Assembly: GCA_001784875.1 (NCBI GenBank)
Contig: MFSH01000006.1
Location: 1-60,556, forward strand
Reading direction: 5' to 3'
Length of the DNA: 60,556 bases
Origin: Candidatus Moranbacteria bacterium RIFOXYB1_FULL_43_19
GTDB taxonomy: Bacteria > Patescibacteriota > Minisyncoccia > Moranbacterales > UBA11712
Shown here: in pieces, positions 10,644 through 51,984 of the stretch
How the letters are laid out: each line of letters starts with the position of its first letter
Position numbering within the stretch: position 1 is the first letter of the stretch
Notes under the pieces: generated by a model
Seen by the model: only the letters and a program-made list of their open reading frames with translations
What the model was told of the DNA's origin: nothing
The model's database searches: none
Translations under genes and position numbers: made by a program

Positions 10644-11222
10644 TTAATCTTTGATTTTTGATATAATACTTTCGAATATTTCCTCTTTGTCCTTCTCTCC
10701 ATCTAAAACCATCATATCCCAATCTTCTATTCTTTGCGCGTATATTTTTTCTTTCGCCGCCAAGTATTCCAACCCCTGATCCGGCTTTCGCTCGCGCCGC
10801 ATTATTTTTTCCGGATCAACTTTGAGATAAAAGGCAAAATCGGGCCAAGGAATGAATTTTTCCGCAAATATTTTACTTGGAAGTTCGGCTTCCAAGTAGT
10901 TTATATTCACCACGGTGTCATAAAAATATCTATCGCTTATAATATAATCAACCTTCAATTTCTTCAATAATCGATTAAATCTGCAAGTATCAATCATCAG
11001 CGCAAGTTTCCGCAATTGAATTTTCAACCAATTCGCTTTGGTTACGCTTCCAATATTTTGACTTTTGACCTTTGGCTTTTGACATAAATTCCCGATTGAA
11101 AACTCTACGGCATGAAAATAATAAAAAGACTTTCCCTGTGATCTCAGGCAATTTTTAAGCAATTCAATTTGAGTCGATTTTCCGGAGCCATCAGGACCGG
11201 AAATAGATAATAATATAGGCAT
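10644..11222 (-). CDS. Thymidylate-kinase-like P-loop kinase (divergent)
   Basis: ISGPDGSGKSTQ Walker A, IISDRYFYD, PD.AFYLKVDPE; start taken at MPILL (11222). Confidence 0.8.
   Translation of the reverse strand: MPILLSISGPDGSGKSTQIELLKNCLRSQGKSFYYFHAVEFSIGNLCQKPKVKSQNIGSVTKANWLKIQLRKLALMIDTCRFNRLLKKLKVDYIISDRYFYDTVVNINYLEAELPSKIFAEKFIPWPDFAFYLKVDPEKIMRRERKPDQGLEYLAAKEKIYAQRIEDWDMMVLDGEKDKEEIFESIISKIKD
10875..10897. repeat. Palindromic element inside the kinase CDS
   Basis: ACTTGGAAG-TTCGG-CTTCCAAGT; the 27-mer 10875-10901 is identical to 51805-51831. Confidence 0.85.
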
Positions 11223-19037: not shown

Positions 19038-20720
19038 ATGTCTATCTATAACAATCCAGGAAATATTATAAAAAATATTTTCAAAAGAGAACTCACCTGG
19101 GTTTGGGTTTTTGGTTTTGTCTTGAGTCTGGCTGCTGTGGCTCTTTCTGCAAAAAATAAACTGCCTCTCGGGAAAGGGGATTTTGTTTTTCTTGCTCTGG
19201 TGACTTTGCTTGTGGCGCTCTACCGTCCCCGCTGGATATTTTTTCTTTTCGTGGGAAGCATTTCTCTCGAAAACATAATTTTGACCGGCGGTTTTCTCCC
19301 GATTCAATTGCGGCTCTATCAGTTTTTCGGAGGAATATTGATTCTGGCTTTGGCTATTCTATTTGCCTCCAAACGGCTTAGTTTCAAACTGCTCAAACCA
19401 ATTTGGATCGATTGGCTTGTTTTTTCGCTGATTCCTTTCAGCTTCCTGGCTCTGATGGCCGCTCCGAACAAATCTGCCAGCCTTAAAAATAATTTCGTTT
19501 TAATTTCTTTTGTCGCCCTATATTATCTTTCCCGCAATTTCATGAGAAGCCGGAAGGATTTTGCCAAAACAGCCGCTTTTTTGACAATTTCTTTTTTGGC
19601 AACAACTTTATTCGGCTTTTGGCAGGTTTTCGCCGATAAATTCGGTGCCAAATCTCTTGAGGTGATGTTTGGGCGGCCAAATTCCACTTTTACGGAACCA
19701 GATTGGCTGGGGCTATATTTGTGCTTCGCGCTGGCCGTTTTTCTTTCGTTGATGTTTTATATCCTCCAGACAAAGAAAAAGGCATTCGTTTCAAAAAAAT
19801 CTTCCGCCTTGATTTTGGATATTTTGATTTTTCTCGACGTGACATTGATTGTTCTGACACTTTCCCGCTCGGCTTGGATTGGAGCGGCCGCCGTTTTCAC
19901 TTTTTACTTCCTTGCGCTTGTGCCATCGCAAAAATATATTTCCGCCAGAAAATATGCTGCGGGCTGGAGAGGATTTTTGAGAGAAGCGGCAATAATATTT
20001 TCGATTGTTGTTATCTCTCTGGCAACAGTTCATTTTGGAAAACTTTCGAAGTTTGATCTAAGCGACCGGGCGCGTTCAGCGGCTACCAGCGAACAAAAAA
20101 TCACAATCGCCTGCGAAAATAGTACGAGTATTTTGCAAACAGTTTCCAACACGGACGAACTGAAAAAATTCAATTGCCGGCATATCAATCTCGAGGAAAT
20201 TAATTTCTATAAATCGCAGGGAAAAGTCGTCACTGAAATTTTCCGGAAAGACCCGAATGTGATGACTCGAAGCGCGATTTATCAAAAAAGCTGGGAGATT
20301 CTCAAAATTCATCCAATCACGGGAGTCGGCTTTGGATCAATCACGCAAAATCTGGGAGCTGACGAGCGGGGAGCGGGGCTCAATGAGAGCAACGTTTTCC
20401 TTCAGGTCTGGGCGGGAAGCGGAATCTTTGGACTTATAGCTTTCGTTGTGGCAATTGGATATTTATTTGTTTACGCGTTTCGACGTGTATCTCCAGTCTG
20501 CCCAATGAATAAATTTTTTGGCTGTCCGATTATAAAGGATGATTTTGAAAAAATTTTATCTGTTTTCGCGGTCTTAGGCATTTCAGCCTTGATAATTCCA
20601 AATCTTTTCAACGCGGGGCTATTCATGGGAATTTTTTGGCTTGGATTGGCGGTTGTTGTAAATATTCGTGATTTTATTGAGGTCGAACCTCGCTCGGGCA
20701 AGGTGTTAGATATAATTTAG
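19038..20720 (+). CDS. O-antigen ligase / Wzy-like membrane protein
   Basis: Many TMs; RPNSTFTEPDWLG, LTLSRSAWIG, R..IYQKSWEI..HPITGVGFG, ESNVFLQ. Confidence 0.82.
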   Translation: MSIYNNPGNIIKNIFKRELTWVWVFGFVLSLAAVALSAKNKLPLGKGDFVFLALVTLLVALYRPRWIFFLFVGSISLENIILTGGFLPIQLRLYQFFGGILILALAILFASKRLSFKLLKPIWIDWLVFSLIPFSFLALMAAPNKSASLKNNFVLISFVALYYLSRNFMRSRKDFAKTAAFLTISFLATTLFGFWQVFADKFGAKSLEVMFGRPNSTFTEPDWLGLYLCFALAVFLSLMFYILQTKKKAFVSKKSSALILDILIFLDVTLIVLTLSRSAWIGAAAVFTFYFLALVPSQKYISARKYAAGWRGFLREAAIIFSIVVISLATVHFGKLSKFDLSDRARSAATSEQKITIACENSTSILQTVSNTDELKKFNCRHINLEEINFYKSQGKVVTEIFRKDPNVMTRSAIYQKSWEILKIHPITGVGFGSITQNLGADERGAGLNESNVFLQVWAGSGIFGLIAFVVAIGYLFVYAFRRVSPVCPMNKFFGCPIIKDDFEKILSVFAVLGISALIIPNLFNAGLFMGIFWLGLAVVVNIRDFIEVEPRSGKVLDII

Positions 20721-20771
20721 CTTGTCGGCAATATTTTTTGTTATTAATCGGCCGTAGCGAGGTTCGACCTC
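20679..20771. mobile_element. 93-bp element with perfect 16-bp inverted termini overlapping the end of the ligase gene
   Basis: GAGGTCGAACCTCGCT (20679-94) and AGCGAGGTTCGACCTC (20756-71). Confidence 0.8.
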
Positions 20772-20779
20772 TCAATTTT

Positions 20780-21913
20780 ATGAGAATCGGCATAGACATT
20801 CGAGTGATCGGCAAAAAACGCACCGGGGACGAAGTGTATTTTTTCAATTTGGTGAAAAACTTAGCGGCTATCGACCAAAAAAATGAATACTCTTTATATA
20901 CCGACCGCGATCCGGAAAAAGACGAGGGCTTGGCGCGAGAGATAGCCAAACTCGAGCTGGGCGAGAATCTCAAAGTCGTATTCGTCAAAAATACGAACCG
21001 CTTTTGTTGGAATTTCCGGTATCTGCCGATGTATCTCAAAAAAAATCCAGTGGATATTTTTCATACCCAGTATATCGCGCCCTTTCGGCTGCCGAAAAAT
21101 ATTAAATTAGTTCTCACAATTCACGATATTTCATTCAATTTTTTCCCGCAGCATATCAAAAAGTCCGATTTGGTTTTTCTAAAAACACTTATCCCTCGAA
21201 GCATCCAGCGAGCCGATAAAATCATAGCTGTTTCCAAAAGCGAAAAGAAAAATATCATTGATTTTTATAAACTATCTCCTGAAAAAGTAGATTTCACCTA
21301 TAACGGCGTGAACTACCAGAAATTCAATCAAAAATTTTCACCTGAAAAAATAAAAGAAATAAATACCAAATACCAAATACCAAATACCAGATACATACTT
21401 TATATCGGCACCTTCCAGCCGAGAAAAAACATTCCGGTTCTTATTGAATCGATAAAAAATCTGGACATAAAATTGATCCTGGCCGGAAACAGAGAAGCTC
21501 ATAATTTTGACAAAAGAATTGACGAAGCAATCGAGAAAAACAATCTCAAAAATAAAGTGATTTTCCCCGGTTGGATTGATGAGGATGACAAACCCTTCCT
21601 GCTCCAATCCGCCAGCTGTTTCGTTTTTCCATCACTTTATGAAGGCTTTGGAATTCCCGTCATTGAAGCGATGTCTGCCGGAACGCCAGTTATTTGCTCT
21701 AACATTCCCGTCCTTCAGGAATTAGCGGACGATACGGCGCTTTTCTGCGATCCGAAGAACAGTGGTGATTTCACAAAAAATATTCAAAAAATACTAATCA
21801 ACGAAAATTTGCGGAATAACTTGGTCAAAAAAGGTCGAGATACCGCCCAAAAATTCATCTGGCAAAAAACGGCTGAAAAAACGCTTGAAATTTACACTTC
21901 CCTTATAAAATGA
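20780..21913 (+). CDS. Glycosyltransferase family 4
   Basis: MRIGIDIR, TIHDISF, QPRKNI, YEGFGIPVIEAMSAGTP. Confidence 0.92.
   Translation: MRIGIDIRVIGKKRTGDEVYFFNLVKNLAAIDQKNEYSLYTDRDPEKDEGLAREIAKLELGENLKVVFVKNTNRFCWNFRYLPMYLKKNPVDIFHTQYIAPFRLPKNIKLVLTIHDISFNFFPQHIKKSDLVFLKTLIPRSIQRADKIIAVSKSEKKNIIDFYKLSPEKVDFTYNGVNYQKFNQKFSPEKIKEINTKYQIPNTRYILYIGTFQPRKNIPVLIESIKNLDIKLILAGNREAHNFDKRIDEAIEKNNLKNKVIFPGWIDEDDKPFLLQSASCFVFPSLYEGFGIPVIEAMSAGTPVICSNIPVLQELADDTALFCDPKNSGDFTKNIQKILINENLRNNLVKKGRDTAQKFIWQKTAEKTLEIYTSLIK
21361..21395 (+). repeat. In-frame heptamer tandem repeat (AAATACC)4-AGATACA inside GT4
   Basis: Four perfect copies at 21361-88 plus one degenerate copy; encodes NTKYQIPNTRY. Confidence 0.9.
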
Positions 21914-45101: not shown

Positions 45102-45647
45102 TTAGCGCAAAGAAAATGACTCCAGAACGTAATAAACTCTTTTTCCTTTCTCGAATTTGCTTTCAAAAAGCTCAATCGAAGAAACAGGCGCAGAAAATTC
45201 AAAGTTTTTTTCAATTTTCAGAGGAGGAGAAATTATTTTCCATTCTTTTTTTTGAATTCTTCCGAGCGTTATATGCGGCCTGAAGTCCTTTTTCTCTCTC
45301 GTGAAAAAACCCAGCGCCTTGTCTAATTGATATTTGAATTCTGAAAGCTCTTTGTTCTTTTCCCCTCTTATCCAGATCATTTTTTTTGCTTTGCTGTTTG
45401 GCCCCAGCTCCGCTCCCAAAAATTTGAGATCAAATGATTGGAAATTTTGGGCTAAGGCTTCAATTGAATGGCAAATGTCCAAAACATTTTCGTCCAGAAT
45501 ATAGCCTAAAAAATTCAATGTTATATGAAAATTTTCCTTCCGCACCCATTTTACGGGCAAATTCCTGTACTCTTTTTCGACAAATCGAAACAGGCGCTTT
45601 TTGATATCTTCCGGCAAGCTTATGGCCACAAATAAGCGCTTTTGCAT
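45102..45647 (-). CDS. thpR: RNA 2',3'-cyclic phosphodiesterase (2H family)
   Basis: RLFVAI; two HxT motifs (FHITLNFLG, PHITLGR); LFES. Confidence 0.93.
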   Translation of the reverse strand: MQKRLFVAISLPEDIKKRLFRFVEKEYRNLPVKWVRKENFHITLNFLGYILDENVLDICHSIEALAQNFQSFDLKFLGAELGPNSKAKKMIWIRGEKNKELSEFKYQLDKALGFFTREKKDFRPHITLGRIQKKEWKIISPPLKIEKNFEFSAPVSSIELFESKFEKGKRVYYVLESFSLR

Positions 45648-45754
45648 CCCGGTAGTAGTCCGCCCCCAAATTATTTGGCGGGAAAAATAATTAGCCGAAA
45701 AAACTGAAACTTAGCCCGAAAAATGACCTGATTTTTTGGCGGATCACTACCGGG
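45648..45754. mobile_element. 107-bp MITE-like element inserted at the thpR start codon
   Basis: Termini CCCGGTAGTAGTCCGCC / GGCGGATCACTACCGGG (15/17), flanked on both sides by CAT (minus-strand ATG). Confidence 0.8.
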
Positions 45755-45763
45755 CATGAGTAA

Positions 45764-45792
45764 ATTATAGCATTTTTTCAATTATATTTCAA
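45764..45792 (-). promoter_or_regulatory. Sigma70 promoter upstream of thpR
   Basis: Minus strand TTGAAA-17 nt-TATAAT with extended TG; predicted start about 45757. Confidence 0.7.
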
Positions 45793-45803
45793 CCCAAAAA
45801 AGC

Positions 45804-48110
45804 CTATTGATCTATGCTCAGCTGGTAGACCACAATCGTATCCGATTTTTTGTCGGAACGGATTTCTGTTCCATCCGCCGCAAAAACACCAAAGGTAATG
45901 TCATTTTCTCCCGGCTGGATATCGCTTAGGTCCACTGAAATCGCCTGCTTTTGATTGATACTGGTGATATATTTGTTATAAACTTCGTTTCCGTTGAGAA
46001 ACACTTTTGCTCTGAGAGGTTTTGCCACTTTCAAATTGAAATTCATCTCGCCGCTTTGCACAGCGCCGGTCATATTCACCAGCTTCACTCCCGCCCCATT
46101 TTCGGCCCAGCGATGAAGGCCATTTTTCGACTTGCTTTTTCCGACCCAGTGATTGTTTGAATAGTCCATCGCCAGAAACATATGATTGGGCTTTTCTCCG
46201 ACATCAATCTTGCAGGCATAAAGATACTCATCCTGATATTCATCCGCGCATTTTATCACATTCTGGACATATGCTTGAGCTGAATAAAACATATTCAAAT
46301 CGCCCTTGGCCGGATTGCCTTTGAGCCCCTCTTTGTCCAATATTATATAGCGAATATTGTAATAATTCAGTATTTCACTTGAAATGTCATAATATGAATC
46401 TTTCATCATGTCCCGGTCATTGCCGTTGCTCCCGCCCGGCAAATCATAAAGAATTGTTCGAATGATCGGAGTTCCCCGCTGGAAAGTATAGTGATCGTCA
46501 ATCACCCGGGCAAAGTCATATCCGTTGACGGTGTTTTTGCGATGAATGCTTTTCCAGACCAAATCGCGCGATGCAAAGTCGTAATCCGTGCTTCCAGGAA
46601 CTTCAAGGACGCTGTAGTTTTCTTTGTCCTGCCCAAGCTTTTCATAAAAAGAAGAATGCAGCAGTAAGTTTGTTTTGATCGGAACAGCAAGATACTCAAT
46701 GACAATTATTATGGAAATTGCAAAAAATATAATCTTCTGCCCGAGATTGTTCCCGAATAAATAGGCTAACTCTTTTTCCTCTTTGTTTTCATTCAGAACT
46801 TCTTCTTTTATTTTTTCGCTTTTATTTCTTTTTTTTGATATCAAGTACGCAGCTCCCCACGCCGCCAGGACAGAAAATGCCAGCATCGAATACACGAAAA
46901 GCCGCCCGACAGTGCGGATATTATTGAAAAACGGAAGGTAGTTGTAGGTCAAAAGATACGGCATCTTGACCGGCGGCTCGATTTGTCCCTTGAAGTGAAG
47001 ATACGGCCCGAGAGACAAAACATAGAAGCCGAGGGCAACTGCCAGCCAAAACCACTTTTTTGAAATTCGATCCTTGAAAAATGCGAAGATGGATAGCGCC
47101 AGCACCAGAAAACCGACGTAGACAGAAAAAGAGCTTTCAATTTTTCGCTCAAATGTGCCGCGCAGCTTGGCAAAGGCATCCGGCCAAAATGCGTGAAAGC
47201 TCGGCGGGATAAAAACGCTCAAGGTGTCATTTGAGTACTTCACGGCCGCTTTGAATCCCGGATTGAGATAATTATTTTCCGAGGAAGCAATCTTGAAAAG
47301 CGAGCGGAACATAAAAAAGAAAACCAGGGAAAGAACCAGAGCGCCAACAACAGCGTAAATCCAGAATTTTTTCCGCAGAAACACCTTTGGCTGGGTAAAA
47401 ATCTTATATACAAGAAAAAACAAGACAAAAATAAGAGAAAAAGCCAAAAGCTGGTGCTCCGTAAAGGCAATGATGGCCAGAAAAAGTCCGGCAAGAAAAA
47501 AGTATTTTACCTTGAGATTGCCTGCCCCGTTAGAAATTTCCGATGGTCCAGAGATTCGACCATTCGAAATATTTGCGTCTATATTTTTTGAACTGTTATC
47601 ATAATTTCTAACGGGGTCGAAAAATTTGAAAAGATACAGCGCGAAAAAAGGCAGCCACTCTTGATGCATTGTTCCCACGTTCGTGCTCAAAGAATTGTGA
47701 ACGTGGAACGGAGAAAAAGCAAAGATTATTCCGGCGATAAGAGAAGCCGGCTTGCTTCGGGTGAAATAAAAGGCCAAAAGATACATCCCAAAACCGGAAA
47801 GCACAAAAGACAAGAAAAAGAGAAGGTTATAGCCGGCTACGCGCCCGAAAATGATTTCAAAATAGGCATAGATCGTGACTATGTTGAATTCAGAACGCTT
47901 GGCAAGCTCAAGTGTTCCGCCAAAAAAACCATTGTCTTTGAGAACATTGACCCGTTCCCCCGCAACGCCGATAACCTGCATGGTGTCCGAGCCGAGACTT
48001 GGAACCGACGAGAAAAAATGCCAAGCAACCGGCCAAGTGAGGATGACCGTCAGCACTGCATAGAAAAGAATAACTCTAACTTTTTCGTTTTTAAAAATTT
48101 CTGTCTTCAT
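45804..48110 (-). CDS. Large multi-pass membrane protein, GT-C / YfhO-like
   Basis: LGSD, GRVAGYNLL, FAFSPFH, LSLGP, IRTVGR, C-terminal extracellular domain; 768 aa. Confidence 0.75.
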   Translation of the reverse strand: MKTEIFKNEKVRVILFYAVLTVILTWPVAWHFFSSVPSLGSDTMQVIGVAGERVNVLKDNGFFGGTLELAKRSEFNIVTIYAYFEIIFGRVAGYNLLFFLSFVLSGFGMYLLAFYFTRSKPASLIAGIIFAFSPFHVHNSLSTNVGTMHQEWLPFFALYLFKFFDPVRNYDNSSKNIDANISNGRISGPSEISNGAGNLKVKYFFLAGLFLAIIAFTEHQLLAFSLIFVLFFLVYKIFTQPKVFLRKKFWIYAVVGALVLSLVFFFMFRSLFKIASSENNYLNPGFKAAVKYSNDTLSVFIPPSFHAFWPDAFAKLRGTFERKIESSFSVYVGFLVLALSIFAFFKDRISKKWFWLAVALGFYVLSLGPYLHFKGQIEPPVKMPYLLTYNYLPFFNNIRTVGRLFVYSMLAFSVLAAWGAAYLISKKRNKSEKIKEEVLNENKEEKELAYLFGNNLGQKIIFFAISIIIVIEYLAVPIKTNLLLHSSFYEKLGQDKENYSVLEVPGSTDYDFASRDLVWKSIHRKNTVNGYDFARVIDDHYTFQRGTPIIRTILYDLPGGSNGNDRDMMKDSYYDISSEILNYYNIRYIILDKEGLKGNPAKGDLNMFYSAQAYVQNVIKCADEYQDEYLYACKIDVGEKPNHMFLAMDYSNNHWVGKSKSKNGLHRWAENGAGVKLVNMTGAVQSGEMNFNLKVAKPLRAKVFLNGNEVYNKYITSINQKQAISVDLSDIQPGENDITFGVFAADGTEIRSDKKSDTIVVYQLSIDQ
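47525..47616. mobile_element. 92-bp inverted-repeat element inserted in frame
   Basis: CCCCGTTAGAAATT / AATTTCTAACGGGG, perfect 14-bp termini; encodes PVRNYDNSS...SEISNG between TM segments. Confidence 0.85.
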
Positions 48111-48111
48111 G

Positions 48112-48173
48112 TTCTAATTTCTAATAAAATGACCAATATCTAATGCCGAAAAATTAGTAATTGGAAATTGGAA
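48112..48173. repeat. Head-to-head heptamer arrays
   Basis: TTCTAAT x2, GACCAAT, ATCTAAT ... ATTAGTA ATTGGAA ATTGGAA. Confidence 0.7.
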
Positions 48174-48176
48174 ATT

Positions 48177-48905
48177 TTATTTATATTTACCCTTCCAATA
48201 ATTCACCCTGATTTTCACAAGATCAAGGATCATATTAATCGGATCGCGAACCAGCCTTACGTGACTCTCGGGAGGATTTTGGAGCGATATTGGGAGTTCC
48301 CTGATTTTGTATTTCAATTTATTGGCAATGAATATGACTTCTGCGTCAAAAGCAAACCTCTCCACCGTCACTCGGGAGAAAATATCCATAGCTGCTTTTC
48401 TTCGGAATACTTTGAAGCCGCATTGAGTGTCCCTCACGTTCCAGTCATTGATTATAGTCATACGAAGAATTTGGAAAACCTTTTCCATAATCCGCCGATA
48501 CCAAACAACCGGCCGCACTATGCGAAGCCCTGGCACAAATCTCGAGGCGATAACAATATCGTACCCATTATCAAACTCAAGAACAAATTTTGGCAGTTCC
48601 TCAATCGGGATGCCAAGATCCGCGTCCAAAAACATCACCAGTTCGCAGGAGCTTTCTAAAATTCCCTGCTTCACAACCTTGCCTTTTCCCTGATTTGTTT
48701 TGTTGTCAATGATGCGAAGATGCAGATTCTCTTGAATTTTTTTCAGTTCTTTTGACGTTCCGTCAAAACTTCCGTCGTTCACGACAATTATTTCAAAAAC
48801 TCCAAACCGGTCTTTGAGAAAATTGTGTATCTTTGTTAGGTTTCTTTGGATAGTCTGCTCTTCGTTATACGCAGGAATAATGACTGATATTGCCTTGTTT
48901 TTCAT
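48177..48905 (-). CDS. GT2 polyprenyl-phosphate glycosyltransferase (Dol-P-Glc synthase-like)
   Basis: SVIIPAYNEE, VNDGS.D, NQGKG, FLDAD, DTQCGFK, RFAFDAE; start at MKNK (48905). Confidence 0.9.
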   Translation of the reverse strand: MKNKAISVIIPAYNEEQTIQRNLTKIHNFLKDRFGVFEIIVVNDGSFDGTSKELKKIQENLHLRIIDNKTNQGKGKVVKQGILESSCELVMFLDADLGIPIEELPKFVLEFDNGYDIVIASRFVPGLRIVRPVVWYRRIMEKVFQILRMTIINDWNVRDTQCGFKVFRRKAAMDIFSRVTVERFAFDAEVIFIANKLKYKIRELPISLQNPPESHVRLVRDPINMILDLVKIRVNYWKGKYK

Positions 48906-48966
48906 AAAAAAATAAGCCCGCAGTCTTTTCAAAACCATTATGCTATATTTTACAACAAATGGGCAT

Positions 48967-50709
48967 TTATTTCCACAAATCTTTCCAAAATATACGGTTT
49001 GATTTCTCGTTTTCCTCTCCTGCGCTTTTATAGGTCGGCAAGAGCTGGCCGGCAAAATTTTCTTTCAGAGCCAATTTGTATACTCCTACAGCGCCGATTT
49101 TGTTTTGCTCGCCAGCCTCAAATTCCGCCTGTATTTTTTTATCAATCGGCAATTTTTTCGTCCGTGTCAGCCCCATTGCGAAAACGCATTTTTCCTCGTC
49201 TCCTGTTTTCAGGCTGCTTATGGAAATAGCTTTTATTCCTTTTTGCTCCAACAAATATTTCACGGGCCTTTTATACTCGGCAGGCGCATTGTAATACACT
49301 TCCTTTTCTGAACAGTTTTTCTCCATATATTCTGTGGCTTTTTCAAGGTGCCAAAGAACAATTCCGTCTTTAGCTTTGAGAATTATTGTCCGCCGGGGAT
49401 AAGTCCCTTTTTTCTGGGCTGCTTCGATTTCCTTAAACCAGGCAAATGTCCCAACCAAGTTTCCGAAGAATATGACCAGAAGGACAGCCGCGACACAAAC
49501 CTTCCAAAATGCGTGCCTCTTTCGCCAGAATAATGTCGCGATATACCCTGCAAATATGAACGGCAGCCCTAAAAGAGGAAGAAAAAATCTCGGCCGGATC
49601 TGATAGGCCACAGGAATATACGTGAGAAAATAAACCAAAAACCAGAGGAGCGAAACCAGGATAAAGTTTTTTTTCACCAAGTTTTTTTCCTGACGGAAAG
49701 ATCGAAGACCGACGTAAAGCGCCGGTAAAATTGCGCCCAACCAGGCTAGAGCCGCGCTGCTTATCCCGCTTTTACGGCTTATCCAACTGGTCAGAATAAG
49801 CAACCAATTCTGCCCCCAATACCGCACATCCCGATTCACATTTTTCCAAAAACTGTGCGCTGATGGCTTTTCTTTGAGCGCCAGCATGAATTGACGGGTA
49901 TTTTCTCCTTTGGAGGCAATTTCATTCAAAATCACCGGGATATACACCAAAAGGACAATCGCCAAAAACAAAAGGATATATTTCCAGTTGAGCGCTTTTC
50001 TTGCATATTTCCAGTTGAAAATAATGAATAATACTGTAATCACAGGCAGCGTAAGAAAAGAAAGAAAATGAAGCTGGGTCGAAACGGCGAAAGAAAATCC
50101 GGCCAGAACCACCCAGCGAAGCCGGTATTTTATTCCCTCGCCCCGCACTGTTTTCCCTTTTTCAACAGGGTGCGGTATTTCTTTGTCCTGCTTATTTTTT
50201 GCTAAAGAAGTGGCGCAGGGTAAATCGAATACATTGAGAAGCGAAAAGAAAAAAAGAAGATTGAAGAAGACGAGACCGTTTGGATTCCAGGCAAAGCGGG
50301 AATATTGGACTCCCAAAAAGCAAACGGCGTAGAGGCTCGCCAGGATCATCGACCAGTCACGCGAAAAGTATTTCTTGGAAAACACATAGAAAAGCGGGAT
50401 GGACAGAATTCCGAACAGAAGATCCGGAAATGCCAGGACCGCCGGATGGGCGCTTTGAAAAAGAACGGCCGCAGCATATTGGAAATAGTAGAAGGCCGGC
50501 CCAAGATTGAGATCTGTTCCGCCAGCTTTTGGTCCAAGGAGCGGCAGCCAGCCGGGGCCCAGTTCAAGGGCTTGCCGAATGGTAGATGCGTCCCGCGCCT
50601 GGTCCATCTTGAAAAAAAGCCAATCGGAAAAATTTGATACGCGAAGAAAAACCGCGAGGGCAATAATGGCAAAAAATAAGATTATTTTCCAGTTTGGTTT
50701 GGATTTCAT
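48967..50709 (-). CDS. GT39/ArnT/PMT-like membrane glycosyltransferase
   Basis: LRVSNF...KMDQARD, LLGPKAG...LGPAFYYF, YSRFAWNPN, QLHF, PRFF. Confidence 0.8.
   Translation of the reverse strand: MKSKPNWKIILFFAIIALAVFLRVSNFSDWLFFKMDQARDASTIRQALELGPGWLPLLGPKAGGTDLNLGPAFYYFQYAAAVLFQSAHPAVLAFPDLLFGILSIPLFYVFSKKYFSRDWSMILASLYAVCFLGVQYSRFAWNPNGLVFFNLLFFFSLLNVFDLPCATSLAKNKQDKEIPHPVEKGKTVRGEGIKYRLRWVVLAGFSFAVSTQLHFLSFLTLPVITVLFIIFNWKYARKALNWKYILLFLAIVLLVYIPVILNEIASKGENTRQFMLALKEKPSAHSFWKNVNRDVRYWGQNWLLILTSWISRKSGISSAALAWLGAILPALYVGLRSFRQEKNLVKKNFILVSLLWFLVYFLTYIPVAYQIRPRFFLPLLGLPFIFAGYIATLFWRKRHAFWKVCVAAVLLVIFFGNLVGTFAWFKEIEAAQKKGTYPRRTIILKAKDGIVLWHLEKATEYMEKNCSEKEVYYNAPAEYKRPVKYLLEQKGIKAISISSLKTGDEEKCVFAMGLTRTKKLPIDKKIQAEFEAGEQNKIGAVGVYKLALKENFAGQLLPTYKSAGEENEKSNRIFWKDLWK
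50141..50221. repeat. Degenerate inverted-repeat element in frame in the GT39 gene
   Basis: CCCCGCAC...TGGCGCAGGGT with an internal CCGCAC-TGTT / AACA-GG-GTGCGG hairpin; hydrophilic insert of about 27 aa. Confidence 0.45.
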
Positions 50710-50991: not shown

Positions 50992-51984
50992 CTATTTGCC
51001 ACGTTTGGCAATTTTAAAAATAAAAATTCTTTTTTTTATTAATCCAAATAAATTCCAAATAACGCTCCCCCATGCTTTGAGAATCACAAGCGCTACTTTG
51101 CCCTTGCTGTATCCTTTTACAAATTCAGTTTCCCGCTTCTTGTTTTTGAATATGTTCAAGACTAACTGCAGATAGCTCAAAAATCGCCAAAAAAATGCTT
51201 CTATCATTTCTCCGAAGGAGAAATTCTTGATAACCATGAAAAAATAATTCCGATGCAGATAATAGGCTTTCAAAAGCGATGCCTTTCCCGCCGTTCCGCT
51301 ATGGACATGGTATGCCAACGCTTGCGGACAAAAATAGGATTTGAATCCGGCTTTTTTCATCCGCCAGGCCAAATCCACGTCCTCATAAAAAGCAAAATGG
51401 TCTTCGTCAAAATAATTATTCCCGGGAAAAGCCGTCTTTTCCAGCGCTTGCCGGGTAAACAGCGAAGCTGTCCCGTTTGCGCCAAAAATTTCTTTTTCGT
51501 CGCTGTATTTTTTTTCATCTTTTCCGTATCCCCTGTTGTGCGCCGTCCCGTCACGTGAAATATATATTCCCGCGCAGTCGATTTTATTTTTTTCAAAAAA
51601 ATTCAGAACCTTCGGCTGGATCGATCCGGCCTCGGGACGATTTTCGGCGCAACTCTGCAACTCCTTGACGTATTTTTCATCCAGCTTCGTGTCGTTGTTG
51701 AGAACAATGACATAATTGATATTTTTGTCTTCGAGAGCTTTTTTTATTCCTGTGTTGTATCCAAAGCAAAAGCCAGTATTCGCTCTCAACTGAACAATCT
51801 CCAAACTTGGAAGTTCGGCTTCCAAGTAGTTAGCTTTTATAAAATCAACCGAATCGTCTTCCGAACCATTGTCCACAAAAATCACTTTGAAATTTTTTTC
51901 TGTCTGCGCTTCGAGCGAATCAAAACAATCTTTGAGATACTTTTTTCCGTTCCAGTTGACAATGATAACTGCAATTTTATACAT
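50992..51984 (-). CDS. Glycosyltransferase family 2
   Basis: IIVNWNG, VDNGSED, NTGFCFGYN, LNNDT, GANGTASL, FAFYEDVDLAWR. Confidence 0.92.
   Translation of the reverse strand: MYKIAVIIVNWNGKKYLKDCFDSLEAQTEKNFKVIFVDNGSEDDSVDFIKANYLEAELPSLEIVQLRANTGFCFGYNTGIKKALEDKNINYVIVLNNDTKLDEKYVKELQSCAENRPEAGSIQPKVLNFFEKNKIDCAGIYISRDGTAHNRGYGKDEKKYSDEKEIFGANGTASLFTRQALEKTAFPGNNYFDEDHFAFYEDVDLAWRMKKAGFKSYFCPQALAYHVHSGTAGKASLLKAYYLHRNYFFMVIKNFSFGEMIEAFFWRFLSYLQLVLNIFKNKKRETEFVKGYSKGKVALVILKAWGSVIWNLFGLIKKRIFIFKIAKRGK
51805..51827. repeat. Palindromic element inside the GT2 CDS
   Basis: ACTTGGAAG-TTCGG-CTTCCAAGT, identical to 10875-10897; both encode LEAELPS. Confidence 0.85.

Follow-up and report, generated by a model that had tools for sequence, protein, structure and literature searches.

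The window analyzed here is a 60,556-nucleotide stretch of Candidatus Moranbacteria bacterium RIFOXYB1_FULL_43_19 (assembly GCA_001784875.1, contig MFSH01000006.1, positions 1 to 60,556), and it carries a 92-bp inverted-repeat element at 47525..47616, inside a gene for a polytopic membrane protein (45804..48110, minus strand). We consider this element likely to be a non-autonomous DNA transposon of the kind called a miniature inverted-repeat transposable element (MITE), with 12- to 14-bp termini of the form CCCCGTTAGAAA(Y) and a 4-bp TNNA target-site duplication, because the loci of its family share these termini and mostly show 4-bp TNNA duplications and because orthologous sites are found both filled and empty. 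In-frame MITEs are already known as a kind, from the Rickettsia palindromic elements (RPEs), and an in-frame MITE insertion, best documented in Rickettsia, is among the few routes by which a protein can gain some 30 residues in one step. In the present case the filled and empty alleles are clean, terminus and target are both defined, and the family spans at least ten phyla whose members are mostly uncultivated bacteria from groundwater and sediment. The notable set of features is the identity of the termini across phyla, the 4-bp TNNA duplication, the coding-compatible ends and the recurrent hits at one site.

The element extends from CCCC to GGGG, reading C CCC GTT AGA AAT ... ATT TCT AAC GGG G on the coding (minus) strand, and it is small and contains no transposase open reading frame (ORF). 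Its plus-strand left arm, CCCCGTTAGAAATT (47525..47538), is the distal arm on the coding strand and encodes I-S-N-G; the first 12 nt of this arm form the core by which the family is defined. The right arm, AATTTCTAACGGGG (47603..47616), is proximal on the coding strand and encodes P-V-R-N. The 14-bp arms are 100% complementary and lie 64 nt apart, and the interior contributes an imperfect palindrome, ATTTCCGATGGTC at 47536-47548 and GACCATTCGAAAT at 47558-47570 (13 nt, 85% complementary), which is private to the window copy and missing from the 80-bp copies in orthologues described below. Both the perfect termini and the partly self-complementary interior had been pointed out in an earlier, sequence-only reading of this DNA, and they stand. 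As DNA the element folds with -18.7 kcal/mol and as mRNA with -32.6 kcal/mol, in each case with a z score of -4.5 against shuffled sequences. TCGA (47617..47620), drawn from the F-D codons TTC GAC, abuts the element on the coding-strand upstream side, at the family's target-site-duplication position; on the opposite side lies CCTG (47521..47524), or CAGG when read in coding direction, which supplies the 4 nt by which the 96-nt net insertion exceeds the element.

Evidence for insertion comes from 76 orthologues with 50-80% identity to the host protein. Approximately 66 of these have no insert and read ...FF(D/E/N)|(D/N)L(K/S)... at the corresponding point, among them the closest relatives P0002-P0004 (77-80% identity over trimmed alignment columns), which read FFD|NLK. 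Three others, P0014, P0020 and P0052, were retrieved via protein homology and not via a repeat search, and they have a 28-residue insert at the identical point that starts PVRNK and ends (A/V)VSNGV. Their DNA (loci L001, L003 and L004, respectively) shows an 80-bp element at the same nucleotide position, with termini ACCCCGTTAGAAAC and GTTTCTAACGGGGT and an exact symmetry, CCCCGTTAGAAAC...GTTTCTAACGGGG. The sequence-only reading, which took the element for a MITE tolerated in coding sequence, had held that a loop kept in orthologues without the DNA symmetry would speak against it; we see the opposite, as orthologues bearing PVRN...SNGV keep the symmetry and most of the remainder have no loop at all. 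The insert of P0012 (PARKKENK...DISNETK) looks, at the level of protein sequence, like a decayed copy. A metagenome scan added about 25 close orthologues, and the sole bearer among them was already known.

Filled and empty alleles can be set side by side. The filled L001 reads ..TTCTTCAA[80 bp]TCAATAAC.., and its nearest empty relative, L127 (P0025, protein 92.6% identical), reads ..TTTTTCAATGAC..; the flanking 4-mer TCAA occurs twice in the filled allele and once in the empty one. The filled L003 reads ..TATTTTGA[80 bp]TTGACAAT.. and has TTGA flanks, and its nearest empty relative, L128 (P0047, 90.3% identical), reads ..TATTTCGACGAT.., with TCGA, one base off. L004 has TTGA on both sides. In L001 and L003 the flanking 4-mer tracks the local codons, being TCAA where these encode FFN and TTGA where they encode FFD. 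This filled/empty pattern is the classic signature of insertion at a staggered cut.

In a neighbor-joining tree the four bearers fall in four clades, and the nearest neighbors of each are empty. Fourfold-degenerate third positions are 32-52% identical between bearer genes, whereas the 2 x 12-13 nt of the termini are 100% identical, which excludes passive inheritance of the termini. Between the 80-bp copies the interiors show about 65% identity, and the window copy differs from them in length and has an unrelated interior. The economical reading is that at least four independent insertions took place in Moranbacteria-like lineages, and it is this recurrence that would make the site a hot spot.

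The alternative that survives best, although we regard it as improbable, is a single ancestral insertion followed by many precise losses, with the termini kept by selection, for example for an mRNA hairpin that would slow translation while the protein enters the membrane, or for the element's own mobility. It would account for the insertion nucleotide shared by all bearers, for the common length and partly common interior of the three 80-bp copies and for the rarity of the family in the bearers' genomes, and the terminal stem is indeed the strongest predicted structure in the four copies (z -4.5 to -6). However, the tree would then require at least ten precise losses, and the covariation of both flanking 4-mers with the codons (TCAA/TCAA with FFN, TTGA/TTGA with FFD) is not predicted. 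The different length and interior of the window copy likewise fit poorly with common descent, as does the identity of the termini at synonymous sites when neutral sites are near saturation. Finally, other phyla have the same termini at no fewer than 120 unrelated loci, most of them intergenic.

Those loci came from a scan for CCCCGTTAGAAA-N(45-75)-TTTCTAACGGGG in one genome per species from 185,579 species. At least 120 loci match, against roughly 0.07 expected by chance (596 Gb x 31 spacings / 4^24), and they occur in at least ten phyla. With taxa taken as named in the sequence records, the matches listed comprise 41 loci from Patescibacteria (the candidate phyla radiation, CPR), 33 of Desulfobacterota type, 15 from Planctomycetota, six from Omnitrophota, four from Pseudomonadota, two each of Nitrospirota type and from Elusimicrobia, one each from KSB1, Stahlbacteria, Edwardsbacteria, Nitrospinota and Clostridia, and 12 unclassified. 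One copy resides in the complete 3.3-Mb chromosome CP113000.1, so the spread across phyla is not a binning artefact. A single match among 2.9 million viral contigs indicates that the element is not typically phage-borne.

Flanks could be evaluated for 128 family copies. A perfect 4-bp direct repeat abuts the termini in 72 of them (56%) and one with a single mismatch in a further 21, so that 73% have at most one mismatch, while controls in shifted register gave no more than five. The target consensus is TNNA: the 4-mer begins with T in 85% of cases and ends with A in 87%; TTTA, TAAA, TTGA, TTCA and TGAA are the commonest targets, and TTAA accounts for one of the 72. Outside the 4-mer (loci L005-L124) there is a weaker palindromic preference, with G/A at position -5 in 68% and C/T right after the duplication in 70%, giving an R-TNNA-Y-like target. 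The length distribution runs from 61 to 130 nt and peaks at 78-80 and 94-95. Different subfamilies have unrelated interiors, and 98 of the 128 copies are singletons at the clustering threshold; one subfamily, in Desulfobacterota, has 18 members. Several copies with different flanks occur within single metagenome-assembled genomes (MAGs; CAZEKS01 and PEUO01).

The family also includes mini-copies of 29-41 nt, made up of a 10- to 12-nt stem and a short loop of 5-9 nt (L083, L067, L010, L036, L124 and L130). Sites at which mini-copies have their own 4-bp duplications include L083 7794-7891, L067 5895-5968, L130 3962-3990 and L050 ~1000-1027; in L083 the loop of a larger copy harbors a 29-nt one, TAAG|CCCCGTTAGAGGCCACGTCTCTAACGGGG|TAAG. 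In MAG DX4.bin27, four identical copies were considered as a sign of recent activity and rejected as such, because they are carried in a larger inverted repeat of 320 bp flanking a 686-aa ORF and are therefore not independent transpositions. This larger repeat (L007 2046-2369 and 4832-5155, ~320 bp, 89-95% complementary) brackets a 2.5-kb segment that encodes the 686-aa, secreted-looking protein, and the segment may be invertible or duplicated.

The mini-copies speak for a second alternative, in which the family consists of hairpins resembling repetitive extragenic palindromic (REP) sequences or REPINs, moved as single-stranded DNA by an HUH/Y1 enzyme (a REP-associated tyrosine transposase, RAYT, or one of IS200/IS605 type) and not by a DDE transposase. 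The stem is the sole conserved part of the element, most copies are intergenic, and a DDE transposase was not found near family loci, all of which would suit such an enzyme. To our knowledge, however, neither HUH/Y1 transposition nor REPs generate target-site duplications. The prevalence of the 4-bp duplications just described therefore argues against this explanation, as do the target 4-mer that occurs once in the empty and twice in the filled allele and the lack of any RAYT-like gene in the neighborhood clustering described below. We consider it quite improbable.

Family members, where they do fall in genes, show a marked compatibility with coding. In a census of 130 family copies, 92 have no long frame through the element, as expected of intergenic copies, 16 lie inside a long ORF, 15 at an ORF 5' end and seven at a 3' end. 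For all 16 internal copies the length plus 4 is divisible by 3. The termini can be read in two of the three frames, as CCC GTT AGA AAY / NTT TCT AAC GGG or as C CCG TTA GAA / TTT CTA ACG GGG (PLE...FLTG), while the third frame meets the stops TAG and TAA; the in-frame bias of the internal copies follows from there being two open frames, and 13 of the 16 use the PVR(N/K)...SNG(V/A) frame. A length of 2 modulo 3 gives the same frame at both ends in either orientation, and the window copy (92 + 4 = 96 nt) conforms. We attribute the tolerance of the window insertion to this multiple of 3 and to termini that read, free of stops, P-V-R-N ... S-N-G.

Many copies occupy the TGAA of ATGAA(A) start codons, where they would create N-terminal tags of the form M-N-PVRN...ISNG-V-K... 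(L027 2401-2480, L034 1866-1942, L021 5239-5333, L033 1170-1247, L074 2947-3024 and L104 1232-1308). Where the length breaks the frame, the element's own ATG, behind a TATAAT-like box, takes over (MVNQISNGV-KYSK..., and MSKKENISNGV-KYEAQKIEKKWQ in leuS). An element is present at the leuS 5' end in two unrelated CPR genomes.

The host gene encodes a protein of 768 aa that combines a GT-C glycosyltransferase fold with a carbohydrate-binding-module-like beta-sandwich at its C-terminus. Its ORF runs uninterrupted across the element (...LFKFFD-PVRNYDNSSKNIDANISNGRISGPSEISNGAG-NLKVKYFF...), and the host gene's is the only reading frame through it, in keeping with the in-frame translation claimed by the sequence-only reading. 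Compared with empty orthologues the net insertion is 32 residues, 166-197; the 31-aa peptide of that reading corresponds to residues 166-196, and its description as a hydrophilic insert between hydrophobic segments agrees with a mean Kyte-Doolittle value of -0.92 and a position between helix 152-164 and the hydrophobic helix 201-217. An AlphaFold2 model built from 107 homologues reaches a mean predicted local distance difference test (pLDDT) score of 89.7 and a predicted template modeling (pTM) score of 0.88. Ten-residue blocks of the insert average pLDDT 54-60, falling below 50 at 189-193, and the flanking helices score at least 95, so that the model suggests a flexible 32-residue loop that links two helices and leaves the rest of the GT-C enzyme intact. 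Tryptic peptides predicted from the loop include NYDNSSK and ISGPSEISNGAGNLK.

The best matches of the model in the PDB, as found by Foldseek, are 6wby AftD (E 1.8e-5), 5f15 ArnT (TM-score 0.51 on the target), 6ftg STT3 and 7zli DPY19, and the C-terminal beta-sandwich has carbohydrate-binding-module-like structural matches. No Pfam model scored above threshold for the host protein and no solved structure in the PDB was matched by sequence; some homologues have PF19830/DUF6311 or PF09586. Named homologues come from Moranbacteria and Parcubacteria, and the gene neighbors in relatives are GT2, PMT_2-type GT-C, GT4 and WecG. Since the model, the PDB matches and these neighbors agree, the earlier label of a GT-C-like membrane protein is correct.

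Might the element instead be a module selected by the host, as a structured RNA, a protein-binding DNA site or a useful protein loop, and not selfish DNA? Conservation of 12-nt termini across phyla and repeated insertion at one site of one gene family could be taken that way, as could the start codons and -10-like boxes that some copies give to downstream genes. We nevertheless find this very improbable. No Rfam family reached its gathering score, whether in the window or in 12 family loci, and relaxing the threshold over the element region brought up nothing credible; subfamilies have unrelated interiors, which are mostly singletons; about 87% of orthologues do without the loop, for which the model offers no confident structure; and the duplications point to transposition.

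A chance palindrome or an assembly artefact is already refuted, despite the single copy in the window and the frequency of short AT-rich palindromes in low-GC genomes, given that a Markov-1 simulation predicts 0.145 perfect 14-mer inverted pairs per window (spacer at most 100 nt), that contigs from two independent groundwater runs (X7 and X9) span the element with zero differences, which excludes an artefact, and that the same termini recur in orthologues and at the other family loci. Two loci of that inverted-pair class were observed in the window, 47525-47616 and 20679-20771. Intein and intron readings were rejected on anatomy.

If the element is indeed a MITE, its arrival in the host gene can be pictured as follows. 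A transposase acting in trans would make a 4-nt staggered cut at a T-rich TNNA, here in the F-F-D codons TTT TTC GA|C, and would then join the element in at the cut. The gene would survive because adding 4 to the element's length gives a multiple of 3 and because the termini, read as P-V-R-N and (I/V)-S-N-G, are stop-free, polar and turn-forming; the outcome would be the flexible loop between two GT-C helices.

As to the enzyme, the termini offer a lead. IS1380 elements have CC ends and a 4-5-bp duplication, and piggyBac, with its TTAA target, is their eukaryotic relative. The CCCC ends of our element and its 4-bp duplication with outer T and A resemble these family properties. The published termini of piggyBac, CCCTAGAAAGATA, and of ISEcp1, CCTAGATTCTACGT, allow a direct comparison: TTAA|CCCTAGAAAGATA, CCTAGATTCTACGT and TNNA|CCCCGTTAGAAAT have in common a CC or CCC start and a TAGA(A) motif. 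The resemblance amounts to about 8 nt, however, and could be coincidental; the target is TNNA rather than the TTAA of piggyBac, and no transposase of that type with family termini was found in the loci searched.

The hairpin chemistry of piggyBac leaves complementary 4-nt donor overhangs whatever the duplicated 4-mer, and with an enzyme of that type seamless excision would therefore be possible. At the window site the empty-allele or seamless-excision junction would read ...TTTTTCGA joined to CAATCTC...; the skipped form was not seen in the assembler contigs, which cannot show its absence. Such excision, if true, would suit reversible in-frame insertion. Tentatively, one could go further and propose a coding-compatible superfamily (CCCCGTTAGAAA) spanning phyla, a general generator of loops and N-terminal tags that is mobilized by a piggyBac/IS1380-like transposase and reversible by seamless excision; it would belong to the same tentative picture that some subfamilies bring a -10-like box and an ATG, and that F-F-D codons and ATGAA starts are repeated targets.

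Several observations sit uneasily with the MITE interpretation. The search for an autonomous copy covered long-range terminus pairs and orphan termini, a close reading of locus L038, a clustering of 616 neighboring ORFs and a Pfam scan, and no transposase gene bounded by family termini was found in 124 loci (up to 8 kb each) or in about 1 Mb of flanks of related genes; the recurrent neighbors of family loci are housekeeping genes only, for leucyl- and isoleucyl-tRNA synthetases (LeuRS and IleRS), a family 4 glycosyltransferase (GT4), a short-chain dehydrogenase/reductase, a type II secretion ATPase, an ATP-binding cassette ATPase and RecG. That an IS1380/piggyBac-like enzyme mobilizes the family, which motif resemblance and family properties suggest, remains doubtful. 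The window copy does not have an intact duplication, its TCGA and CAGG flanks matching at one of four positions, and yet it keeps all 28 terminal nt perfect. Three substitutions within 4 flanking nt are unlikely to have come about through drift; they might instead reflect selection acting on the residues at the junction (V-D to A-G), or the integration may have been atypical. At least two mismatches in the flanking 4-mer are found in 27% of the family copies.

Other such points concern copy number and recurrence. The window has no further copy (searched with the 14-mer terminus at up to 2 mismatches and the 9-mer core at up to 1), and the roughly 1 Mb of flanks of related genes gave one further copy, which is the P0014 locus itself. 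The family is thus rare in Moranbacteria-like DNA, yet one nucleotide position was struck at least four times, and a preference for TNNA is by itself insufficient to account for this. P0005, P0053 and P0062 have unrelated inserts at the same point without an inverted repeat, which represent either relics that have decayed completely or indels that arose independently in a permissive loop; these inserts, of 8-27 residues after FFD, are at L125 3520-3600, L126 610-675 and L144 ~1050-1075, respectively. At 29-41 nt, the mini-copies would make an unusually short substrate for DDE cut-and-paste transposition. Finally, translation of the element is deduced from the continuity of the ORF only, the locus being found in none of the RNA runs searched.

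Among known systems the RPEs are the nearest in effect. They are palindromic repeats found in frame in unrelated genes (Ogata et al. 2000, 2002, as summarized in PMC10969869), and in-frame insertion has also been seen with ERIC, BOX and other MITEs (review PMC10969869). Like RPEs, the present elements are short and palindromic, insert in frame, add a surface or loop peptide that the fold tolerates, and are patchily distributed among orthologues. RPEs are ~100-150 bp long and confined to Rickettsia, whereas this family spans at least ten phyla, has sharp termini and a 4-bp TNNA duplication, and has about 12% of its copies inside long ORFs. We know of no clear signature of terminal inverted repeats with duplication in RPEs. 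The comparison is one of working alike and not of membership, the hosts here being Patescibacteria and other phyla.

The described bacterial MITEs (Correia/NEMIS, ERIC, BOX, Nezha and QMITE; PMC10969869) are similar in being small, with terminal repeats, a duplication and no transposase gene, and in having multiple, mostly intergenic copies with occasional in-frame fusions and some promoter-like or start signals. Most described MITE families, however, are restricted to a genus or family and tied to a known insertion sequence (IS), while here an identical 12-nt terminus is found across phyla with no known parent IS, and one position of one gene has been hit repeatedly in separate lineages. REP/REPIN sequences with their RAYT share with our family the formation of hairpins, abundance, a mostly extragenic location and very short minimal units; membership was rejected, because most of the present copies are flanked by duplications, a RAYT gene was not seen and the neighbors are housekeeping genes. 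Integron attC sites are likewise imperfect palindromes (57-141 bp), contain GTTRRR / YYYAAC cores and occur in part of the phyla concerned here. Their order is RYYYAAC...GTTRRRY, the opposite of the GTTAGAA...TTCTAAC of the element, and attC was rejected on this ground; family copies, moreover, are solitary and duplication-flanked rather than arrayed behind cassettes.

The 12-mer terminus was not found in the literature searched (8.3 million papers), where 36 matches to shorter 10-mers proved unrelated and no work linking MITEs with these phyla was seen. We found no earlier description of the family in the literature or in Rfam; ISfinder and repeat databases lay outside this search. For annotation, PVR[NK]...[IVLF]SNG[VA] and PLE...FLTG can serve to flag MITE-derived segments in proteins predicted from MAGs. 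Should a mobilizing enzyme be found, the identity of the termini across phyla, seamless excision and the rate at which new loops, N-terminal extensions and start sites arise would become testable.

A few further features of the window deserve mention. The host gene belongs to a conserved glycan-related block (45102-50709) that also contains genes for a LigT-like 2',5' RNA ligase (45102..45647), a GT2 (48177..49055) and a second GT-C/PMT_2-like membrane protein (48967..50709); neighbors from this block recur in the relatives at L125, L129 and L003. The only other long inverted repeat within 100 nt in the window, at 20679-20771, has 21-nt arms (GAGGTCGAACCTCGCTCGGGC and GCCGTAGCGAGGTTCGACCTC, 90% complementary, 51 nt apart) and reaches from the end of ORF 19038..20720 into the start of ORF 20738..21913. 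The sequence-only reading had called the 92-bp element a second MITE family, and this repeat is probably the other one it meant. A perfect 27-nt repeat, ACTTGGAAGTTCGGCTTCCAAGTAGTT, with a 9-bp stem and a TTCG loop, is found at 10875-10901 and 51805-51831, one copy being intergenic and the other lying within the minus-strand ORF 50992..51984.

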